A stretch of DNA of 37,071 nt from positions 1 to 37,071 of IMG/VR virus record IMGVR_UViG_3300032212_000078; one strand, 5' to 3'. This DNA comes from a virus (Duplodnaviria > Caudoviricetes). The translations under genes and the position numbers were made by a program. The notes below the pieces were generated by a model that worked only from the letters and a program-made list of their open reading frames with translations, made no database searches and was not told where the DNA came from. This document shows, in pieces, positions 92 through 37,071 of this stretch (position 1 is the first letter of the stretch; each line of letters opens with the position of its first letter).

Positions 92-118
92 TGTGACTAG
101 ACGTTTAGTATGAAAGAT
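92..118 (+). repeat. Left-end transposase binding site L1
   Basis: TGTGACT-AGACGTTTAGTATGAAAGAT shares the core RnAC-N3-TARTWTG with the right-end sites. Confidence 0.75.
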
Positions 119-1749: not shown

Positions 1750-2238
1750 ATGGCTAAACGGAATTGGAAAAAAGCCCAACCCAACAGCCTGCGCCACGCA
1801 CAAGAACTGTGCCTGGAACACGCTCTGGCCAAGCACAACCGGTCAGTGGATAACATTGCCGATTTAATGGGCATTCCCAATAAATGGAACCTCTATAAAT
1901 GGCTGGAAAGTGGCCGGATGCCAGCCATCCTAATTCGCCCCTTTGAGGCCGCCTGCGGCATCGATTTTATGACCCAATACCTTGCTGCATCGTGTCATAA
2001 ATTAATGATCGACATCCCCACAGGGCGCAAGGCATGCCCCCAAAAATTGAATGATGTGCAAGGCTCGTTTGCCGAAGCGATGAACCACCTTATCTGTTTT
2101 TACAACCATAATGGCGAGGCGGATGAAACACTCTCCGCACTCAGCCGAGTCATGAGTGATATCGCCTGGCATCGCGAGAATGTAAAAAAGAGCGCGTCAC
2201 CAGAGCTAGCGTTATTTAACGACGGCGGCGACCAATGA
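1750..2238 (+). CDS. Phage regulatory protein (HTH, CII-like) upstream of transposase
   Basis: HTH-like SVDNIADLMGI..WNLYKWLESG, GAGG RBS, position typical of B3-like phages. Confidence 0.7.
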   Translation: MAKRNWKKAQPNSLRHAQELCLEHALAKHNRSVDNIADLMGIPNKWNLYKWLESGRMPAILIRPFEAACGIDFMTQYLAASCHKLMIDIPTGRKACPQKLNDVQGSFAEAMNHLICFYNHNGEADETLSALSRVMSDIAWHRENVKKSASPELALFNDGGDQ

Positions 2239-4466
2239 ATCAGGAATGGTTCACCACTGCTCATCTTGCTGGTTTGCCACTGCTCCCTAGTACGCCACGA
2301 GGCATCAATAAGATTGCCGATCGTGAATCGTGGGAAAGTAGAAAGCGAGCAAAAGGAAAAGGCCGCGAATACCACATCAACAGCTTGCCAGAAGAAACCC
2401 AACGCCACCTACGCCATCAACAAGCGGTAGCGGCCGTCAACGTCATGAGCGCAGCAACGCCGCTGCCTAACGAAGTCGCACTCGATAAAATCATGGGGCC
2501 GTTAGCAGAATCAACCCAGGCGAGATTAACCAGAAAAGAGCAGTCGTTAAAAGACTTTTCAGCCTTGCCCGCTGGGCCTAAAAAAACACGCGCCAAAGCA
2601 CGTAAATGGACAGTCGAAGCCCTTAACATCTACCGCCAAACCCACGGCGGCACCAAGCAATCGAGCCGTGCCCAGTTTGCCCAGGCATTCAATGACCACA
2701 CGCTCGACAAAGACACCATTGACCCACCACAGTGGGTGCGAGAGCAGATGCCCAAATACAACGGCACTCACACCCTCAGTGCCGCCAGTCTGCACCGCTG
2801 GGAAAATGATCTATTCAACAACGGCATCATGGCTCTGGTCGATAGCTACGGCCAAAACAAAGGCCGCAGCAAAATCGAATGCAATGAAGCACTGAAAAAG
2901 ATCGTACTCGGTACTCTCTTTAAATACCCGCATATCACAGCCAAAGATATCAAAGCCTATATCGAAGCAGGCCACACAGAACTAGATATCGTCTCAATCA
3001 AGGGCATTGATCGCTATATAAAATCGTGGAAAGCAGACAACGCGCAACTGTGGACAAAGATCACCAATCCCGACAAGTGGAAAAATATCTACATGGCTGC
3101 GGTCGGCTCGCATCACGACCAGATCATCCGCCTTAATCAATTATGGGAGATGGATAGCACCCCTGGCGACTGGATGCTCACCGACGGCCGTCACTCCGTA
3201 GTCGGCGTTATTGATATGTATTCACGTCGCCTCAAACTTTACGTATCCAAGACCTCAAAGGCCACCGCCGTTTGTCAGGTGTTCCGCCGTGCAGCCATCG
3301 CGTGGGGTATACCCGAAGCGATCCGAACCGATAACGGCAAAGATTATGTATCTAAGCAGATAGATGAAGTAGTTGAAGCCTTAGAGCTAGAACATGAGGT
3401 ATGTATCCCTTTTGCATCAGAAGAGAAAGGCACCATCGAACGCGCCATGCGTACCATGAGCCACGGCATACTCGATCTACTCCCCGGCTTCATAGGCCAC
3501 AACGTCGCAGAACGTAAAGTGATTGAATCACGCAAAGCCTTCGCGCAACGCATTATGGATAAAGATGCCGTGGTTGATGTGGCGTTATCGAGTGACGATT
3601 TACAAGTAATTCTTGATGAATGGACAGACCACCTCTATATGCACAACATTCATGGTGCTGATGACATGGATGGAAAAACACCCTTCCAAAAAGCATCAGA
3701 ATGGACAGCGCCAGTACGCCGTATCTCAGATGAACGCGTGCTCGATATGCTACTCGCAGAAGTTGCCGGCACATGTTCAATTCAGAAAAAAGGTATCCGA
3801 TTCAAAAAACACTGGTACTGCAACCCCAAACTATTTGAACACATGGACGATCACGAAAAGACAAAGGTCACCATCCGTTACGATGAGCAGGATATCGGGC
3901 GTCTCGCCGTCTATATTTCTGGTTGCTTTATTTGCTGGGCAGAATGCCCTGAATTACTTGGTACCTCGCGCAAAGAAGCGGCGGCAGCCATCAAAGCGCA
4001 TCAGAAAAAATTCCTTAACGAGCAATCGAAACAGTACAAACGGTATAAGAAGGAAATCACCGACAATGTGGCAGATGTCGTTCGCCAACATCAGGTTGAA
4101 CAGAGTCAAAAAATTTACGCCTTTCCACCGAAAAGCACAGAACACACCACGCCAGCCATTCAATCAGTCACCGGGCTAGAAGCATCACAACAACCAACAG
4201 CACCTGAAGAAACAAAACGAGAAAAAGAGATCAAAGAGCAGATCGCCAACAACACATTTAAACCAGTAGTGCTGAATATTACCGAATCAGAAACCCCAGA
4301 AGATCGCTACAGAAGATGGGCAAGAGTCGAGCACCAAATGCAAAATGGTGAGCCAGTGAGCGATGACTTAAAAGCGGCACTAAAACGCTACCAGCAGAGT
4401 AGTGGTTACAAAATGATGAAGGATTTCTTTAAAGAATTTGGCCTCTCCATTGGAGAGGCCAACTAA
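2235..4466 (+). CDS. A: MuA-like DDE transposase
   Basis: N-terminal Mu I-alpha HTH (WFT..LAGLP.LP...GKGREYHINSLP), catalytic WEMDST / RTDNG / KGTIER, Mu-type C-terminal domain. Confidence 0.96.
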   Translation: MNQEWFTTAHLAGLPLLPSTPRGINKIADRESWESRKRAKGKGREYHINSLPEETQRHLRHQQAVAAVNVMSAATPLPNEVALDKIMGPLAESTQARLTRKEQSLKDFSALPAGPKKTRAKARKWTVEALNIYRQTHGGTKQSSRAQFAQAFNDHTLDKDTIDPPQWVREQMPKYNGTHTLSAASLHRWENDLFNNGIMALVDSYGQNKGRSKIECNEALKKIVLGTLFKYPHITAKDIKAYIEAGHTELDIVSIKGIDRYIKSWKADNAQLWTKITNPDKWKNIYMAAVGSHHDQIIRLNQLWEMDSTPGDWMLTDGRHSVVGVIDMYSRRLKLYVSKTSKATAVCQVFRRAAIAWGIPEAIRTDNGKDYVSKQIDEVVEALELEHEVCIPFASEEKGTIERAMRTMSHGILDLLPGFIGHNVAERKVIESRKAFAQRIMDKDAVVDVALSSDDLQVILDEWTDHLYMHNIHGADDMDGKTPFQKASEWTAPVRRISDERVLDMLLAEVAGTCSIQKKGIRFKKHWYCNPKLFEHMDDHEKTKVTIRYDEQDIGRLAVYISGCFICWAECPELLGTSRKEAAAAIKAHQKKFLNEQSKQYKRYKKEITDNVADVVRQHQVEQSQKIYAFPPKSTEHTTPAIQSVTGLEASQQPTAPEETKREKEIKEQIANNTFKPVVLNITESETPEDRYRRWARVEHQMQNGEPVSDDLKAALKRYQQSSGYKMMKDFFKEFGLSIGEAN

Positions 4467-6900: not shown

Positions 6901-7516
6901 TCAACACATGATCAACGCGCAGGGGCATCTGGTGCCGACTGCGCTGGTTTCTGATCATGACAAGCTCAAAAATGAGCTGGTTACCAACATCGCTTATGAA
7001 GCGCTGGCACTTAGTCAGCAACTGGTTAATTTAAAGCGCAGAACGTTGGCAGATATCCAGGCGTTCGTGGAACTATCCGCAGAACGCTACAACGCCAGCA
7101 TGGGCGGGAAAAAGGGCAATCTCAGCCTGTTAAGTTTCGACGGCAACACTAAGGTTCAAATCGCCATTAGTGATCACCTGGTATTTGATGAAAAATTACA
7201 GATTGCAAAAGTATTAATCGACGAATGCATTAACGAGTGGATGAGTAAAAGCAACGGCACGGATGATTCACACGTCAACATCAAAGCCCTGGTACAGCAC
7301 GCCTTTCAAGTAGATAGAGAAGGTCAGGTAAACCGCGCGCGAATCCTTAGCCTAAAGAAGATCGATATCAAAGATGAAAAATGGCAAGACGCCATGCGCG
7401 CCATTGCCGATTCAATGACGGTCATCGGCTCCACTCAGTACCTGCGAATTTATCAGCGCAAAGAACCCGGCGCACGCTTTAAACAAGTGTCACTAGACAT
7501 TGCCAACGCCGAGTAA
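6887..7516 (+). CDS. DUF3164 family protein
   Basis: NAQGHLVP, GGKKGNLSLLSFDG, FDEKLQIAKVLIDECI, AFQVDREG, YLRIYQR. Confidence 0.88.
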   Translation: MTVNDQHMINAQGHLVPTALVSDHDKLKNELVTNIAYEALALSQQLVNLKRRTLADIQAFVELSAERYNASMGGKKGNLSLLSFDGNTKVQIAISDHLVFDEKLQIAKVLIDECINEWMSKSNGTDDSHVNIKALVQHAFQVDREGQVNRARILSLKKIDIKDEKWQDAMRAIADSMTVIGSTQYLRIYQRKEPGARFKQVSLDIANAE

Positions 7517-10346: not shown

Positions 10347-10979
10347 ATGGGCGCAAAATCAAACGCACTCGAAAATGCACTTATCGATTTCTGGCTGCGA
10401 GGGCAATCGCTGGTGCCGCCAGCAACTACTTACATCAAATTGATCGTCTGTAATGGCGTCCATGCTGTTGGTACACCTCTAACGCTAAACGACTTAATAG
10501 CTGTGCAGGACGATAGCAATAAATGGCGGCTCTACATGGTCACAACTGCGGGAACTACGGCAGGTGTTAAGCCATCGTACCCAGGGGTTAACAATGAAGT
10601 GATTGCCGATGGCAGTGCTGTGCTCACTCAGCAAAATGCCGGGCTTGAAAGTGGCGCGTCGATCTCGACACCTGTAGGCAATGGATATGCAAACGCTGCG
10701 GTAGTATCGAATATGGCTAACTGGGCAGGGACTCACGGTGCGGACACTACCACTGTTTCGACCGGTGTCGGCGCAACTACAAGTAACAATGCGCCCGTTG
10801 CTTTCCCTAACCCGACAGGCGACTGGGGTTGGGTATTCGGATTTTTAATTGATGACACCGATGTATCACTCGGTAGGTACCTATGGTCAGAATTCCAGGG
10901 CGGGCCTGTACAAATAGTAAGCGCAGCTACGAACGTCCAGTTTAATAATGGGCAGTTGTCTTACCAAGAAGATAATTAG
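10347..10979 (+). CDS. Putative accessory fibre subunit
   Basis: SNALENALIDFWLRGQ...PATTY, NNAPVAFPNPTGDWG, inserted YMVTTAGTTAG.KPSYP...DG module, GAGG RBS. Confidence 0.6.
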   Translation: MGAKSNALENALIDFWLRGQSLVPPATTYIKLIVCNGVHAVGTPLTLNDLIAVQDDSNKWRLYMVTTAGTTAGVKPSYPGVNNEVIADGSAVLTQQNAGLESGASISTPVGNGYANAAVVSNMANWAGTHGADTTTVSTGVGATTSNNAPVAFPNPTGDWGWVFGFLIDDTDVSLGRYLWSEFQGGPVQIVSAATNVQFNNGQLSYQEDN

Positions 10980-10990
10980 ATTTTATCGCC

Positions 10991-12904
10991 ATGGCTGGAG
11001 CTGTAATATCAGGTACTAACACTGCGTCACTGCACAACGTGGGCGGCGGCAAGCAGTACGCGGGCAAAGACTTTACCCGCCACTGGCTTAACACTGCGTC
11101 GGGTGAGTACGACGGTCTCCTCCCGAAAACAAACGGCACATCAGAGGATCATTACGTCTGTAAAAACATTACCGGTACTCCCGTTTTCACAAATTTGCAA
11201 ATGGAAAACAGGAGTTCTGGACGGCCAGATGTATACTGGGATGACCCGGCGAAAATACTCTATTGTCTTGGCCCTCACAATTCGACGGTCAGGTTTTGGT
11301 CAGCGTTCTACGATGACCAAACTGGTGATTATTCCCCGCTTGTAGGCACTGCGGGCGCTGGCGGTATAACCGTGCCGGGTCTGTCGCGGTCTACTTACGA
11401 CATGACTCTGAGTCTGACAAAGTCCCCGAACGGGTACCTTTGGGCGTTTGAGTTAGACGGCACTGGACTAAAAGTCCAGCGGTCAACCAATGGTGGCGCT
11501 ACGTGGCTAGCGGATCGCGTCAAGATAGCCGATAACAATGGCCATGGCTCGGTCAGTAGCTGCTGGTTTACTCATAATGGTACTAATTACGTTTGCGTGT
11601 TTTGCGCAGAAGATGGAGCGGTAGGCGGCGCTACGCAATACTTTTACGTCATCGACGAAGACGCTGATATAACAAATCTTACAAACTGGATAAATGAAAG
11701 CGACGACATACCCGCGCTTGATGCCGGGGTAGTCGCCGACAACCATGTCACTATGGCTCGATCTAGCGATCATACTTTATACATCGGTTATAAAGATGAT
11801 GCCGACGCGATTAAATTAGTCACACGCACCGCTGCGGGTACGTGGGCAGGGTCTTATGAAGCATGGGCACCTGCTGACAATAAAACGCGTCCTGCGCTGC
11901 TCGTTAAGAAGATTGACAGCTCAACTGACGAAGAGCTGATGATCGTTGTTAATACAACGAGCGACGGGCCGACTGTTGTCTATAAAACATCGCCATTAGA
12001 CACGATATTGTTTTCATCAGAGGTGGTATTGTTTGAGGATACAGCAGGGTCGGACGTGTTCAACGACTCGATGACGCACCAGGGTGATTTCATAGCATCA
12101 TCAGATAGCGGCGTAGTCGTGATCGCCGAAAACGTGACCGACACCGAAATGTGGGTTAATACAATAAGCATTGCGCCACCGGTGAATTCATCAATCCCGT
12201 TGGTCGGTGCAGCGATTACTCTCGCAACCGCCGCGGGCACTGTTGCAGCGAGCATCCCAATCGAGGGCGCAGCGGCAACTGTAAGCAGCGCAAGCGGTGG
12301 TCTATCTGTAGCTGTCAACATCAACGGTGCGGCGGTTGCTGAGGCTATCGGTGCAGCGGCAATGACATCTGATATGGGTGTTTCGGGTGCCGCGGTTGCA
12401 GCCGCGATAGCAAGCGGTGGTTTGTCAATCAACCTTGGTTTAGAGGGTAACGCAGTCGCAGCCGCAAGCGCTACGGCGGATCTATCATCTAGTGATGCTG
12501 CATCGGTGCCATTATCTGGCGACGCAACTGCAAGCGCGAGCGCGTCGGCGTCATCCTCGATGGATATACCAATCAGTGGCGCGGCAATATCAACAAGCGG
12601 CGCAGCTGGCGGATTGGGCGCAATCTTCCCTGTCAGTGGTAGTGCCGCATCGGTAACAGCGGCGGTCGGGGCATTAAATATAGGTTTTAATCTTGCTGCA
12701 AACGCTAGCGCTGATGCGTTAGCGGGGGGGGATATCAAAATTAGTTTTGATATTGATGGTGCTGCCGTTGCGCGGGCGTCCGCCTCTGGGGCGCTGAGTT
12801 TGGGTGGAACACATCATTTGCCACCGCCAGAGCGCCTTGAAATTATTTATTACGAAGAGCGAATGGAAACCATCCCGTACGAACATAGGATTACGGCGGC
12901 ATGA
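10991..12904 (+). CDS. Fibre-like protein: N-terminal Asp-box (sialidase/BNR-like) propeller plus ten 20-aa Ala/Gly repeats
   Basis: Asp-box STNGGATW at 11483; repeats from aa 402. Confidence 0.65.
   Translation: MAGAVISGTNTASLHNVGGGKQYAGKDFTRHWLNTASGEYDGLLPKTNGTSEDHYVCKNITGTPVFTNLQMENRSSGRPDVYWDDPAKILYCLGPHNSTVRFWSAFYDDQTGDYSPLVGTAGAGGITVPGLSRSTYDMTLSLTKSPNGYLWAFELDGTGLKVQRSTNGGATWLADRVKIADNNGHGSVSSCWFTHNGTNYVCVFCAEDGAVGGATQYFYVIDEDADITNLTNWINESDDIPALDAGVVADNHVTMARSSDHTLYIGYKDDADAIKLVTRTAAGTWAGSYEAWAPADNKTRPALLVKKIDSSTDEELMIVVNTTSDGPTVVYKTSPLDTILFSSEVVLFEDTAGSDVFNDSMTHQGDFIASSDSGVVVIAENVTDTEMWVNTISIAPPVNSSIPLVGAAITLATAAGTVAASIPIEGAAATVSSASGGLSVAVNINGAAVAEAIGAAAMTSDMGVSGAAVAAAIASGGLSINLGLEGNAVAAASATADLSSSDAASVPLSGDATASASASASSSMDIPISGAAISTSGAAGGLGAIFPVSGSAASVTAAVGALNIGFNLAANASADALAGGDIKISFDIDGAAVARASASGALSLGGTHHLPPPERLEIIYYEERMETIPYEHRITAA
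12194..12806 (+). repeat. Ten degenerate ~60-bp (20-aa) coding repeats
   Basis: IPLVGAAITLATAAGTVAAS / IPIEGAAATVSSASGGLSVA / ... / FDIDGAAVARASASGALSLG. Confidence 0.8.
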
Positions 12905-13179
12905 GGCCATACAGTATTACGCTGGGTGGAGAGCTGGACTTTGGAAAGGATATCACTCAGTGGTTAAATGGCGACACGATCACAGGCGTGACGTGGTCTA
13001 TTTCACCCGAGTTTGACCTGGTTAACCCTACCTTTGATTCAGCATCATTTGTCGCGTTCGTTAGGCCAAATGGCGCAGCCGTCGTCGGTAGTGTCTGCAT
13101 CTTAACCGCGTCAATACTAACGGCAGCGGGTCGAAGGGATCAGCGAACCATTTCAATAACAGTTACAAAGTATCGATAA
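12901..13179 (+). CDS. Putative fibre adaptor protein
   Basis: LDFGKDITQWLNGDTITGVTW...TAAGRRDQRTISI, ATGA coupling to the fibre gene. Confidence 0.6.
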   Translation: MRPYSITLGGELDFGKDITQWLNGDTITGVTWSISPEFDLVNPTFDSASFVAFVRPNGAAVVGSVCILTASILTAAGRRDQRTISITVTKYR

Positions 13180-35682: not shown

Positions 35683-35966
35683 GGTGCGTTTTATTAGCGG
35701 TACTACTGCTGCCATCCGTGTTGCTTGCTGATGGTCTTTACCTTGAGGCTGGGGTGGGCGCTCACGCTGAGCAGTATGATAGCGTACGCTCAAACGGGGA
35801 GTCGTGGCCAAATGGTCTCGGTATGGGTGAGCTTGGCTACCGATACGGGGATTATAAAATGTTCTTTTTGCACATCAGTTCTCTTGAGCAGAAAGACACC
35901 GGGCTGAATATGCTGGCGATAAAATACCGCTTCGGCGGTGGTCGGAAAGGTGGGTGTGTAAACTGA
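35679..35966 (+). CDS. Small exported beta-strand (outer-membrane-like) protein
   Basis: Signal peptide, alternating strands YLEAGVG / GELGYRY / FFLHISS / MLAIKYRF. Confidence 0.7.
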   Translation: MRCVLLAVLLLPSVLLADGLYLEAGVGAHAEQYDSVRSNGESWPNGLGMGELGYRYGDYKMFFLHISSLEQKDTGLNMLAIKYRFGGGRKGGCVN

Positions 35967-35990
35967 TTTTAGACGTGTGAAATGCGACTA

Positions 35991-36019
35991 TTGACACGGG
36001 GATCAAGATGGATTAATGT
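35991..36019 (+). promoter_or_regulatory. Sigma70 promoter of the right-end operon
   Basis: TTGACA-N17-TAATGT. Confidence 0.75.
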
Positions 36020-36025
36020 TGTTTT

Positions 36026-36039
36026 ACTACTACTCTCAG
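36026..36039 (+). promoter_or_regulatory. Upstream C4 target boxes (a1/b1-like)
   Basis: ACTAC-TA-CTCTCAG is complementary to CTGAGAG..GTAGT of the RNA. Confidence 0.75.
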
Positions 36040-36083
36040 ATGCACTGCGGCAATAATGTTTGGTTTCGTGTAAGCTCCTTCTT

Positions 36084-36159
36084 GCGGGATGAGATGGGGA
36101 AATACAATACCAGCAATGGGAATACCCTGCGCCGCCTGAGAGCGGTAGTTGAGTCCCGC
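36084..36159 (+). ncRNA. C4-like antisense RNA
   Basis: Closing stem GCGGGAT/GTCCCGC, GGGAAATACAATACCAGCAATGGGAATA segment, hairpin CCGC-CTGAGA-GCGG then TAGTTG; complementary boxes upstream and downstream. Confidence 0.8.
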
Positions 36160-36172
36160 CACTTTATAGTGG

Positions 36173-36198
36173 CAACTACTAACTAAACTCTCAGGAGG
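36173..36198 (+). promoter_or_regulatory. Downstream C4 target boxes (a2/b2-like) overlapping the RBS
   Basis: CAACTAC at 36173-36179; CTCTCAG at 36188-36194 overlaps AGGAGG. Confidence 0.78.
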
Positions 36199-36203
36199 CC
36201 ATC

Positions 36204-36431
36204 ATGGCTGGATATCAAGAAACACCTATAGACCGTGCGCAGACCTGCGCATCTCAACTCCATGCGATTGACGAACTATTAGCTCAGTCTGCTGATGGGA
36301 GCGACAACATGCATCTTGTTAACCCTGATCACTTCGCCATACTGCTTAATAGTATCTTGCGAGAGTTGGATGATTCGCTGTTGGCGCTATCGAAACAGGT
36401 GGGCAGTACTCCGCATTTGCGGTCAGTTTAA
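36204..36431 (+). CDS. Small helical protein under C4-like control
   Basis: AGGAGG RBS, 75 aa. Confidence 0.8.
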   Translation: MAGYQETPIDRAQTCASQLHAIDELLAQSADGSDNMHLVNPDHFAILLNSILRELDDSLLALSKQVGSTPHLRSV

Positions 36432-36441
36432 GGGGGATATA

Positions 36442-36858
36442 ATGGCAAAGTCAGTAAAGGTTCGCTGTGAGGCCATCGAGTATGCCCTCAAGCTGATAAA
36501 AAAAGGTAAGCCGCCACGGACTGCTTGGGAGATGGCTGCCGGTAAATTCGACTCCAACGTTTCAACATTATATCGATGGTACCGCTTGATAGAGGGGAAA
36601 CCACGCGGGGAGTGGTCTTCTGCTCTTCAGCCTAAATGGAACAGTGAAGGCACTCCTGTCGAGTTCAGTCAGGCTGCATGGGATTACTTTTTAGCCGTCT
36701 ATAATGAATCTCGGTCTACAAGCGTTCGTGAAGCGTATTGTAAGACACAGGAGGTGGCGGAGTCGAAGGGTTGGGAGCTTCCATCTGAGCGGACAGTAAA
36801 CCGAAGAGTGACCCGAGAGGGCTTTAAAAAGCCATCTCGATATGAGGACTATATCTAG
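36442..36858 (+). CDS. Stand-alone Mu-type transposase end-binding domains (I-beta/I-gamma), no catalytic core
   Basis: VSTLYRWY...PRGEWSSAL...EFSQAAWDYFLAVY...GWELPSERTVNRRV parallels the MuA I-beta/gamma segment; AGGGGG RBS, ATG at 36442. Confidence 0.82.
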   Translation: MAKSVKVRCEAIEYALKLIKKGKPPRTAWEMAAGKFDSNVSTLYRWYRLIEGKPRGEWSSALQPKWNSEGTPVEFSQAAWDYFLAVYNESRSTSVREAYCKTQEVAESKGWELPSERTVNRRVTREGFKKPSRYEDYI

Positions 36859-36867
36859 CCTTTAACC

Positions 36868-36905
36868 CCCGTCAAAATGGCCCTTAAAAGGGCTGTTTTG
36901 ACGGG
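36868..36905. terminator. Long hairpin / probable terminator before the right end
   Basis: CCCGTCAAAATGGCCCTT-AA-AAGGGCTGTTTTGACGGG followed by TTT. Confidence 0.7.
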
Positions 36906-36921
36906 TTTAATGAATAAAACC

Positions 36922-36971
36922 ATCTTAGCAAACTAAGTGTACACGCACCGCAAATTACGCGTCCGGTTACA
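36922..36971 (-). repeat. Right-end transposase binding sites R1/R2
   Basis: Minus strand TGTAACC-GGACGCGTAATTTGCGG (R1) and GTACACTTAGTTTGCTAAGAT (R2). Confidence 0.8.
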
Positions 36972-37071
36972 CTATAAACCGATGAATGAAGACTGGGTCT
37001 CATTCTGTGATCCCAGTCAGAATTCGAACTGGAGTGGTTTTGGTGCCTGTACCAATGGCAATGGGTCGGGT

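Follow-up and report, generated by a model that had tools for sequence, protein, structure and literature searches.

A stand-alone MuA-type I-beta/I-gamma DNA-binding protein behind a C4-like structured RNA in an accessory cassette of a Mu-like phage

The window analysed here is an entire virus record of 37,071 bases, whose genes follow a Mu-like order: repressor, Ner, cII-like, transposase, MuB-like ATPase, GemA, Mor, gp27 and portal, after which come gpF, gpI, gpT and the baseplate. Past the tail genes, a cassette headed by a structured RNA ends in a 138-aa ORF, the last gene of the phage. The features of the window are as follows.

92..103, unstranded: probable left terminus; begins TG, and a contig of run X1 departs from the window before 92
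2235..4466, + strand: resident transposase with PF02316 (I-alpha), an rve core and PF09299 (Mu C-terminal), without PF09039
35942..36905, + strand: accessory cassette; homology to the relative L001 ends at 35941, and the L001 cargo there differs
35991..36019, + strand: promoter-like site (perfect TTGACA, 17 nt, weak -10)
36026..36039, + strand: upstream target, a1/b1-like, complementary to the second loop of the RNA
36083..36168, + strand: C4-like structured RNA (Rfam sRNA-Xcc1, full-length, 46.9 bits against a cut-off of 53, E 3e-7)
36135-36142 and 36145-36151, + strand: antisense segments of the RNA, in its second loop (36135-36151)
36173..36198, + strand: downstream targets, a2/b2-like, with Watson-Crick pairing of 7 and 8 nt; the second shares bases with the AGGAGG of the 75-aa ORF
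36204..36431, + strand: ORF of 75 aa that opens the operon; matches neither a Pfam nor a PHROG family
36430..36437, + strand: purine-rich ribosome-binding site of the 138-aa ORF, overlapping the stop codon of the 75-aa ORF
36442..36858, + strand: stand-alone MuA-type I-beta/I-gamma DNA-binding protein of 138 aa (translation, PF09039, alignment, AlphaFold model)
36868..36905, unstranded: inverted repeat of 18 bp, 89% complementary, 3' of the stop codon; probable terminator
36960..36971, unstranded: probable right terminus; ends CA, and an X1 contig departs from the window after 36971

The termini were called from contigs of run X1, possibly the source sample itself. Since these contigs leave the window at both points, and the termini form an inverted TG...CA pair with 9 of 12 bases identical, the phage probably extends from 92 to 36971. 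A distance of 113 bp thus separates the 138-aa ORF from the probable right terminus, in agreement with the original prediction, which had likened its position to that of mom, the last gene of Mu. The relative L001, whose baseplate J protein is 77% identical to that of the window, is collinear with the window until 35941 and carries other genes thereafter; hence, 35942-36905 represents accessory cargo in a variable slot past the tail genes. An 18-bp motif at 240-257 that recurs inverted at 36929-36946, with four mismatches, may be a site at which the resident transposase binds. Positions 36972-37071, past the probable right end, match an X1 contig of about twelvefold greater depth and are probably a host repeat.

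The 138-aa ORF is intact, with no internal stops, and no variants were found in it in run X1. All four MuA motifs quoted by the original prediction are present in its translation (STLYRWY, WSSAL, EFSQAAWDYFLAVY and GWELPSERTVNRR), and it has the ribosome-binding site of its own that had been claimed for it. From the sequence we infer that translation of this gene is coupled to that of the 75-aa ORF. The downstream hairpin corresponds to the inverted repeat, which was not reported by the terminator scan. The reading frame is open further 5', where an ATG at 36295 would give 187 aa, and the database gene call has 162 aa; both longer starts were rejected because the alignment of homologues begins where 36442 does.

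Profile and structure comparisons established the proposed relationship to the I-beta/I-gamma region of MuA. PF09039 matched the ORF with 44.6 bits (E 1.7e-11, cut-off 20.5), and the MuA chain 4fcy_A aligned to residues 11-124 (E 1e-8). The AlphaFold model (pLDDT 91.9, top Foldseek match 4fcy) consists of two three-helix HTH subdomains with an extended linker between them, each of which superposes on its MuA counterpart at 1.2-1.6 A over 52-58 columns, while the whole-chain TM is just 0.41 because the orientation of the subdomains differs from that in MuA. The ORF spans MuA residues ~103-231 and so lacks about the first 25 residues of I-beta, and it ends in a family-specific C-terminal tail, G-x5-RY(D/E); its net charge is +7. 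Both recognition-helix motifs are retained in the family. As had been proposed, the ORF ends before the DDE catalytic core would begin: it stops after I-gamma, with no DDE_2 or rve match. It was also unmatched in the NCBIfam search. The statement that it is not a duplicate of the resident transposase was borne out by BLASTP (best E 1.8) and by the lack of PF09039 in that transposase; judged by its sequence, the ORF is foreign to the carrier and does not derive from the transposase at 2235-4466. Compared with MuA (PF09039; PDB 4FCY, 2EZK, 2EZH), the two HTH subdomains and the linker agree in both sequence and fold. Unlike MuA, the protein is without I-alpha, the DDE core and the C-terminal domain, the start of I-beta is shortened, and it has its own G-x5-RYD tail and a separate clade.

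Of 1.84 billion representatives searched, 282 matched at E <= 0.001. Homologues of the same length, which the original prediction proposed to look for, make up 18 of the best 22 non-self matches (130-151 aa), the rest having 201 (duplicated I-gamma), 168, 302 and 677 aa. The short family proteins share a common start, end and C-terminal tail, the last unseen in transposases, with pairwise identities of 19-56% and net charges of +1 to +16. A 54-row tree was built from 26 chosen members, P0014, four other short or fused proteins, the transposase of the provirus G486 and 22 of 64 other full-length transposases. In this tree, whose bootstrap was not fully settled, 27 members fell on a single branch at 99/97 with none of the 23 sampled full transposases within it; the family had been delimited from top matches and its tail formed part of the alignment, both of which favour a single clade. 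A quick tree of 168 rows recovered two transposase-free groups (100 and 96) and not one, with other short proteins scattered amid full transposases, pointing to further separate captures.

Three Competibacteraceae-type pairs gave dN/dS values of 0.17, 0.31 and 0.32 and were the only unsaturated pairs of 15; the other 12, which include all pairs with the gene of the window, were at or near saturation or too distant. Neither of the outcomes that the original prediction had named as telling against it, absence of a MuA match or homologues existing as decaying fragments with neutral dN/dS, was found. The protein family is conserved and stand-alone, occurs in several phage kinds and is not a decaying fragment. 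It is apparently undescribed in the searchable literature, which lacks most subscription journals. R146 of MuA sets specificity, for which we found no supporting paper. At the matching position, Tyr occurs in all but one of the 18 members of the group to which the window belongs (17 of 18), and 65 transposases have R in 32%, Y in 25% and W in 22%.

Other searches returned few further members. A word-indexed protein search found the window's own protein only, a search with the profile found five proteins, and the same type of search among longer proteins gave one full transposase. Locus scans of collections with short exact peptides returned, beyond the loci analysed, only the window itself or five full transposases; owing to the exactness and shortness of these patterns, more loci probably exist. 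A class-level sample of 400 genomes contained only G001 and two full transposases. The tblastn matches in 30 annotated-phage and four plasmid records were rejected as transposase genes by annotation and position. As a lead only, the ESM Atlas holds look-alike clusters of 146-154 aa with 64-133 members. P0004 (L013, 8001-8606) carries a duplicated I-gamma and P0033 a tandem I-beta/I-gamma repeat, suggesting modular extension of the predicted binding site. The 105-aa ORF at L050 876-1190 (in G486), which lies directly 5' of the transposase gene and resembles the N-terminal I-alpha region of that transposase, is another stand-alone transposase DNA-binding piece.

Gene neighbourhoods could be compared at six loci with DNA: the window, L012, L013, L002, L011 (close kin of L002) and L004/L006. 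Members P0005-P0024 enter the context counts solely through those in L002, L012 and L013. A C4-like RNA of sRNA-Xcc1 or c4-2 type heads the operon at all six loci, an arrangement that the original prediction had proposed to look for in homologues of the ORF, and stops are intact and the operon is conserved in every one. The order in the window, L012 and L013 is a TTGACA promoter-like site, an sRNA-Xcc1-like RNA, an ORF of 75-81 aa and the family member, and the carriers at all three loci of this group have Mu-like virion genes. The L013 carrier, G486, is a provirus (98% complete) that encodes a MuA-type transposase itself, which is 28% identical to the cassette protein and lies outside the family branch in the 54-row tree; the cassette protein itself is recorded from Cycloclasticus. 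The L012 carrier lacks the early region and runs into a tRNA. Tyrosine integrase was absent from G486-G489, three of which are fragments. Just 5' of the L013 cassette lies a short CxxC...CxxC ORF (7389-7500) with no NCBIfam match, which we take to resemble Mu Com and which suggests that the cassette replaced a mom-like gene.

L002, L011 and L006, which form one subclade, have a c4-2-like RNA, a Bro-N gene and then the family member, with Bro-N and the domain fused as one 328-aa ORF in L006. Their carriers are tRNA-adjacent Competibacteraceae-type prophages whose tail genes are not Mu-like. One and the same tRNA-Lys marks the end of L002 and of L011, and in L006 a tyrosine integrase gene lies next to a tRNA. 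A second Bro-N fusion, P0106, belongs to a different lineage. No MuA-type transposase was detected at E <= 1e-8 in 88 Competibacteraceae genomes, which are incomplete and in each of which at most 46 candidates were scored. Look-alikes of the 75-aa ORF (19-27% identity) occupy the same slot in L012 (7775-8011) and L013 (7753-7998) and also stand behind two other Xcc1-type RNAs (L042, 2198-2410; L032, 1630-1839). In the ESM Atlas, ORFs of this type bear a weak likeness to XAC0095 (0.86) and Derepression protein (0.83), both under the 0.9 bar.

Rfam searches assigned the leader RNAs to two families, with all matches below the cut-offs and none to RF01695 (C4). For sRNA-Xcc1 (RF02221), L012 scored 48.3 and L013 37.5 bits, over the full model length as in the window. 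For c4-2 (cut-off 41), L002 and L011 scored 32.1 bits each and L006 28.1 bits; the L006 RNA was missed at E <= 0.05 over 45 kb and found in a smaller search with E 0.038. The promoter-like site was not reported by the consensus promoter scan, and a TTGAC is similarly placed in L002, L011, L012 and L013. At all six loci, the pairing of the RNA with its downstream region was equalled by just 1-40 of 1000 shuffles. For upstream pairing, the number of shuffles as good per 1000 was 5 at one locus, 64 and 65 at two, and 146, 379 and 669 at the remaining three; in the window, it comprises 7 nt (65 of 1000 shuffles, 0 of 24 cross pairs), and it is weak in L002, L011 and L013.

Base composition was controlled for by pairing each of 25 distinct RNAs with the regions of other loci. 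These RNAs came from 23 of 26 sRNA-Xcc1 matches in 151 genomes, three matches (two unpublished genomes) being omitted, together with the window, L012 and L013. Pairing with the region of the ribosome-binding site reached 8 nt in the window, L012 and L013, and in each case 0 of 24 cross-locus pairings were as good. Among Xcc1-type loci in general, own pairing of at least 7 nt was observed downstream in 17 of 25 (30 of 600 cross pairs) and upstream in 19 of 25 (55 of 600 cross pairs). The paired letters vary by locus, so that RNA and targets change together. Family proteins were found at none of the 23 sampled sRNA-Xcc1 loci; the 21 ORFs scanned behind the sampled RNAs yielded SymE twice and P22_AR_N, KilA-N and Rha once each as clear families, and the first ORF usually begins 30-45 nt past the RNA.

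Locus-specific complementarity to the region of the next gene's ribosome-binding site and to the RNA's own leader was hence a general observation for sRNA-Xcc1 (L022-L047; window 36026-36198), and it indicates that members of this RNA family are built like C4-type antisense repressors with local targets. The RNAs look like such repressors rather than trans-acting sRNAs. In P1, C4 RNA controls ant through complementary upstream regions, according to the accessible sections of PMC7313666 and PMC8201110, and C4 and its a1b1 targets are listed as motifs in the available part of PMC2864571. The Xanthomonas sRNA-Xcc1 is described in the accessible text of PMC2996969 as a discrete 88-nt RNA, and in that of PMC12444791 it precedes symE in Xanthomonas integron cassettes. 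In the same portions of both papers, it is treated as a trans-acting virulence sRNA, in contrast to the local targets seen here; earlier sRNA-Xcc1 papers may already note the link to C4.

The whole arrangement resembles the immI region (c4-icd-ant) of P1 and P7 and the C4/c4-2 cassettes (RF01695, RF02944) in its promoter-like site, structured RNA and downstream targets, with upstream pairing of uneven strength among the loci, and in a small first ORF followed by a larger gene. Unlike in immI, the RNA resembles sRNA-Xcc1 or c4-2, with scores short of the cut-offs, and does not match RF01695, the first ORF has no Icd match, and the cargo is a transposase-derived DNA-binder in place of Ant. RNA fold and slot are shared with the sRNA-Xcc1 cassettes that carry SymE, ORF6N, Rha, KilA-N or P22AR-N. 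We regard it as very probable that the architecture is that of a domesticated family under C4-type control.

The cargo slot, the fusions to Bro-N and the silencing that we predict suggest an effector that binds DNA and is produced for a short period on entry or induction. Our preferred reading, held tentatively, is that the ORF encodes a specific DNA-binding regulator of prophage control DNA, made briefly from a P1 immI-like operon. The promoter would fire on entry into a cell without matching RNA, or on induction, and both ORFs would then be translated for a short time. Once matured, the RNA of ~86 nt would pair with the leader and the ribosome-binding site of the first ORF and shut off the operon, the coupled second gene included, so that lysogens would make little protein. 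Through both recognition helices and the basic linker, the protein may bind a site of ~20-25 bp, most likely in the control DNA of the prophage that encodes it or of another in the same cell, and thereby bias the choice between lysis and lysogeny or the switch to derepression, the role ascribed to genes in the ant position. The regulator or antirepressor role, which the original prediction had offered as a second option, fits better than an anti-phage factor, and no binding site was found for it: a search for end repeats of MuA type, run over the cassettes and the early region, recovered Mu's own left-end repeat as control and gave nothing that outdid shuffles, with most of the contigs used starting away from a true end. 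Against a regulator stand also the facts that Bro-N and its neighbours are termed antirepressors mostly by annotation, that P1 Ant binds repressor protein and not DNA, and that the window's whole group (three loci) sits in Mu-like phages.

The headline of the original prediction was an anti-transposable-phage factor. As an inter-phage weapon, the protein would act at entry or induction, occupying the ends of a rival MuA-type phage and blocking transpososome assembly; we consider this unlikely, and the same holds for its fuller form, in which a single capture of the MuA end-binding module came under C4-type control and is fired as a dominant-negative decoy against rival transposable prophages. 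Such a decoy would stop replicative transposition of rivals, a case of phage-phage competition. The domain is indeed the end-binding module of MuA with both helices intact, at three of three loci in the window's group the gene stands last in a phage whose virion genes are Mu-like, and the protein differs from the carrier's transposase (unalignable in the window, 28% identical in G486), as a non-self blocker should. However, the operon is predicted to be silent in lysogens, and silencing once the RNA accumulates argues against a standing lysogen defence. Family members are found, and fused to Bro-N, in tRNA-adjacent prophages with non-Mu-like tails, one of them with a tyrosine integrase, no MuA-type transposase was detected in the 88 incomplete Competibacteraceae genomes, and PADLOC matched none of four proteins (0 families). 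The Tyr fixed at the R146 position, which is variable in transposases, suggests one conserved target and not the tracking of diverse ends. No positive evidence emerged for the headline, and an anti-phage role of the ORF is possible but unlikely. Equally improbable is a toxic protein that binds DNA largely without specificity and is kept in check by the RNA, in the manner of SymE, Icd or KilA, and that would briefly arrest host growth or division during infection, or kill when RNA control fails. This reading draws on the basic character of the members and on SymE behind the same RNA family, in two sampled loci and in Xanthomonas integron cassettes (accessible text of PMC12444791), as well as on the inhibition of division by icd and kilA of the P1 C4 region, as given in the available part of PMC8201110. 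A module of two HTHs with conserved recognition helices and a linker would rather suggest specific binding, and the gene is usually second in the operon.

Far less probable is modulation of the carrier's own ends or transposition. The short distance to the right terminus and the MuA-type transposase of G486 would suit it, but the transposase of the window has no such domain, that of G486 lies outside the family, and one carrier uses a tyrosine integrase. A neutral or decaying transposase remnant is the least credible of all: the other short transposase-like proteins scattered in the tree and the many family members on contigs of 1-2.5 kb would be in line with it, and the fixed length, own tail, single clade, intact stops, conserved operon and dN/dS well under 1 have already largely refuted it.

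IS1 InsA, IS911 OrfA and P-element KP are truncated transposase inhibitors that come from and act on their own element, and CENP-B and the paired domain are domesticated transposase DNA-binding domains. Like these, the ORF keeps the DNA-binding part of a transposase without catalysis. Unlike the inhibitors of InsA/OrfA type, it is foreign to the phage that carries it and is part of an unrelated operon under RNA control. Among prokaryotes, the family clearly exemplifies a DNA-binding domain that was taken from a transposase and domesticated as a gene family of its own, placed in the antirepressor slot of phage operons that are predicted to be RNA-silenced. While RNA-controlled phage operons of this kind are known, the cargo family is new. 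As DNA complexes of the parent MuA module have been solved, it offers a tractable probe of the poorly understood slot of Bro-N/Rha/KilA type.

Two further observations concern other parts of the window. Minor variant contigs of run X1 at 639-723 (ORF 550-768) and 2339-2429 (the N-terminal region of the transposase) point to a co-occurring related phage. At 10347-13179, between the lysis and terminase genes, a 637-aa ORF is bordered by two genes that match the podophage GP4 fibre and adaptor families PF23140 and PF23148, an odd site for fibre-like genes in a Mu-like phage.
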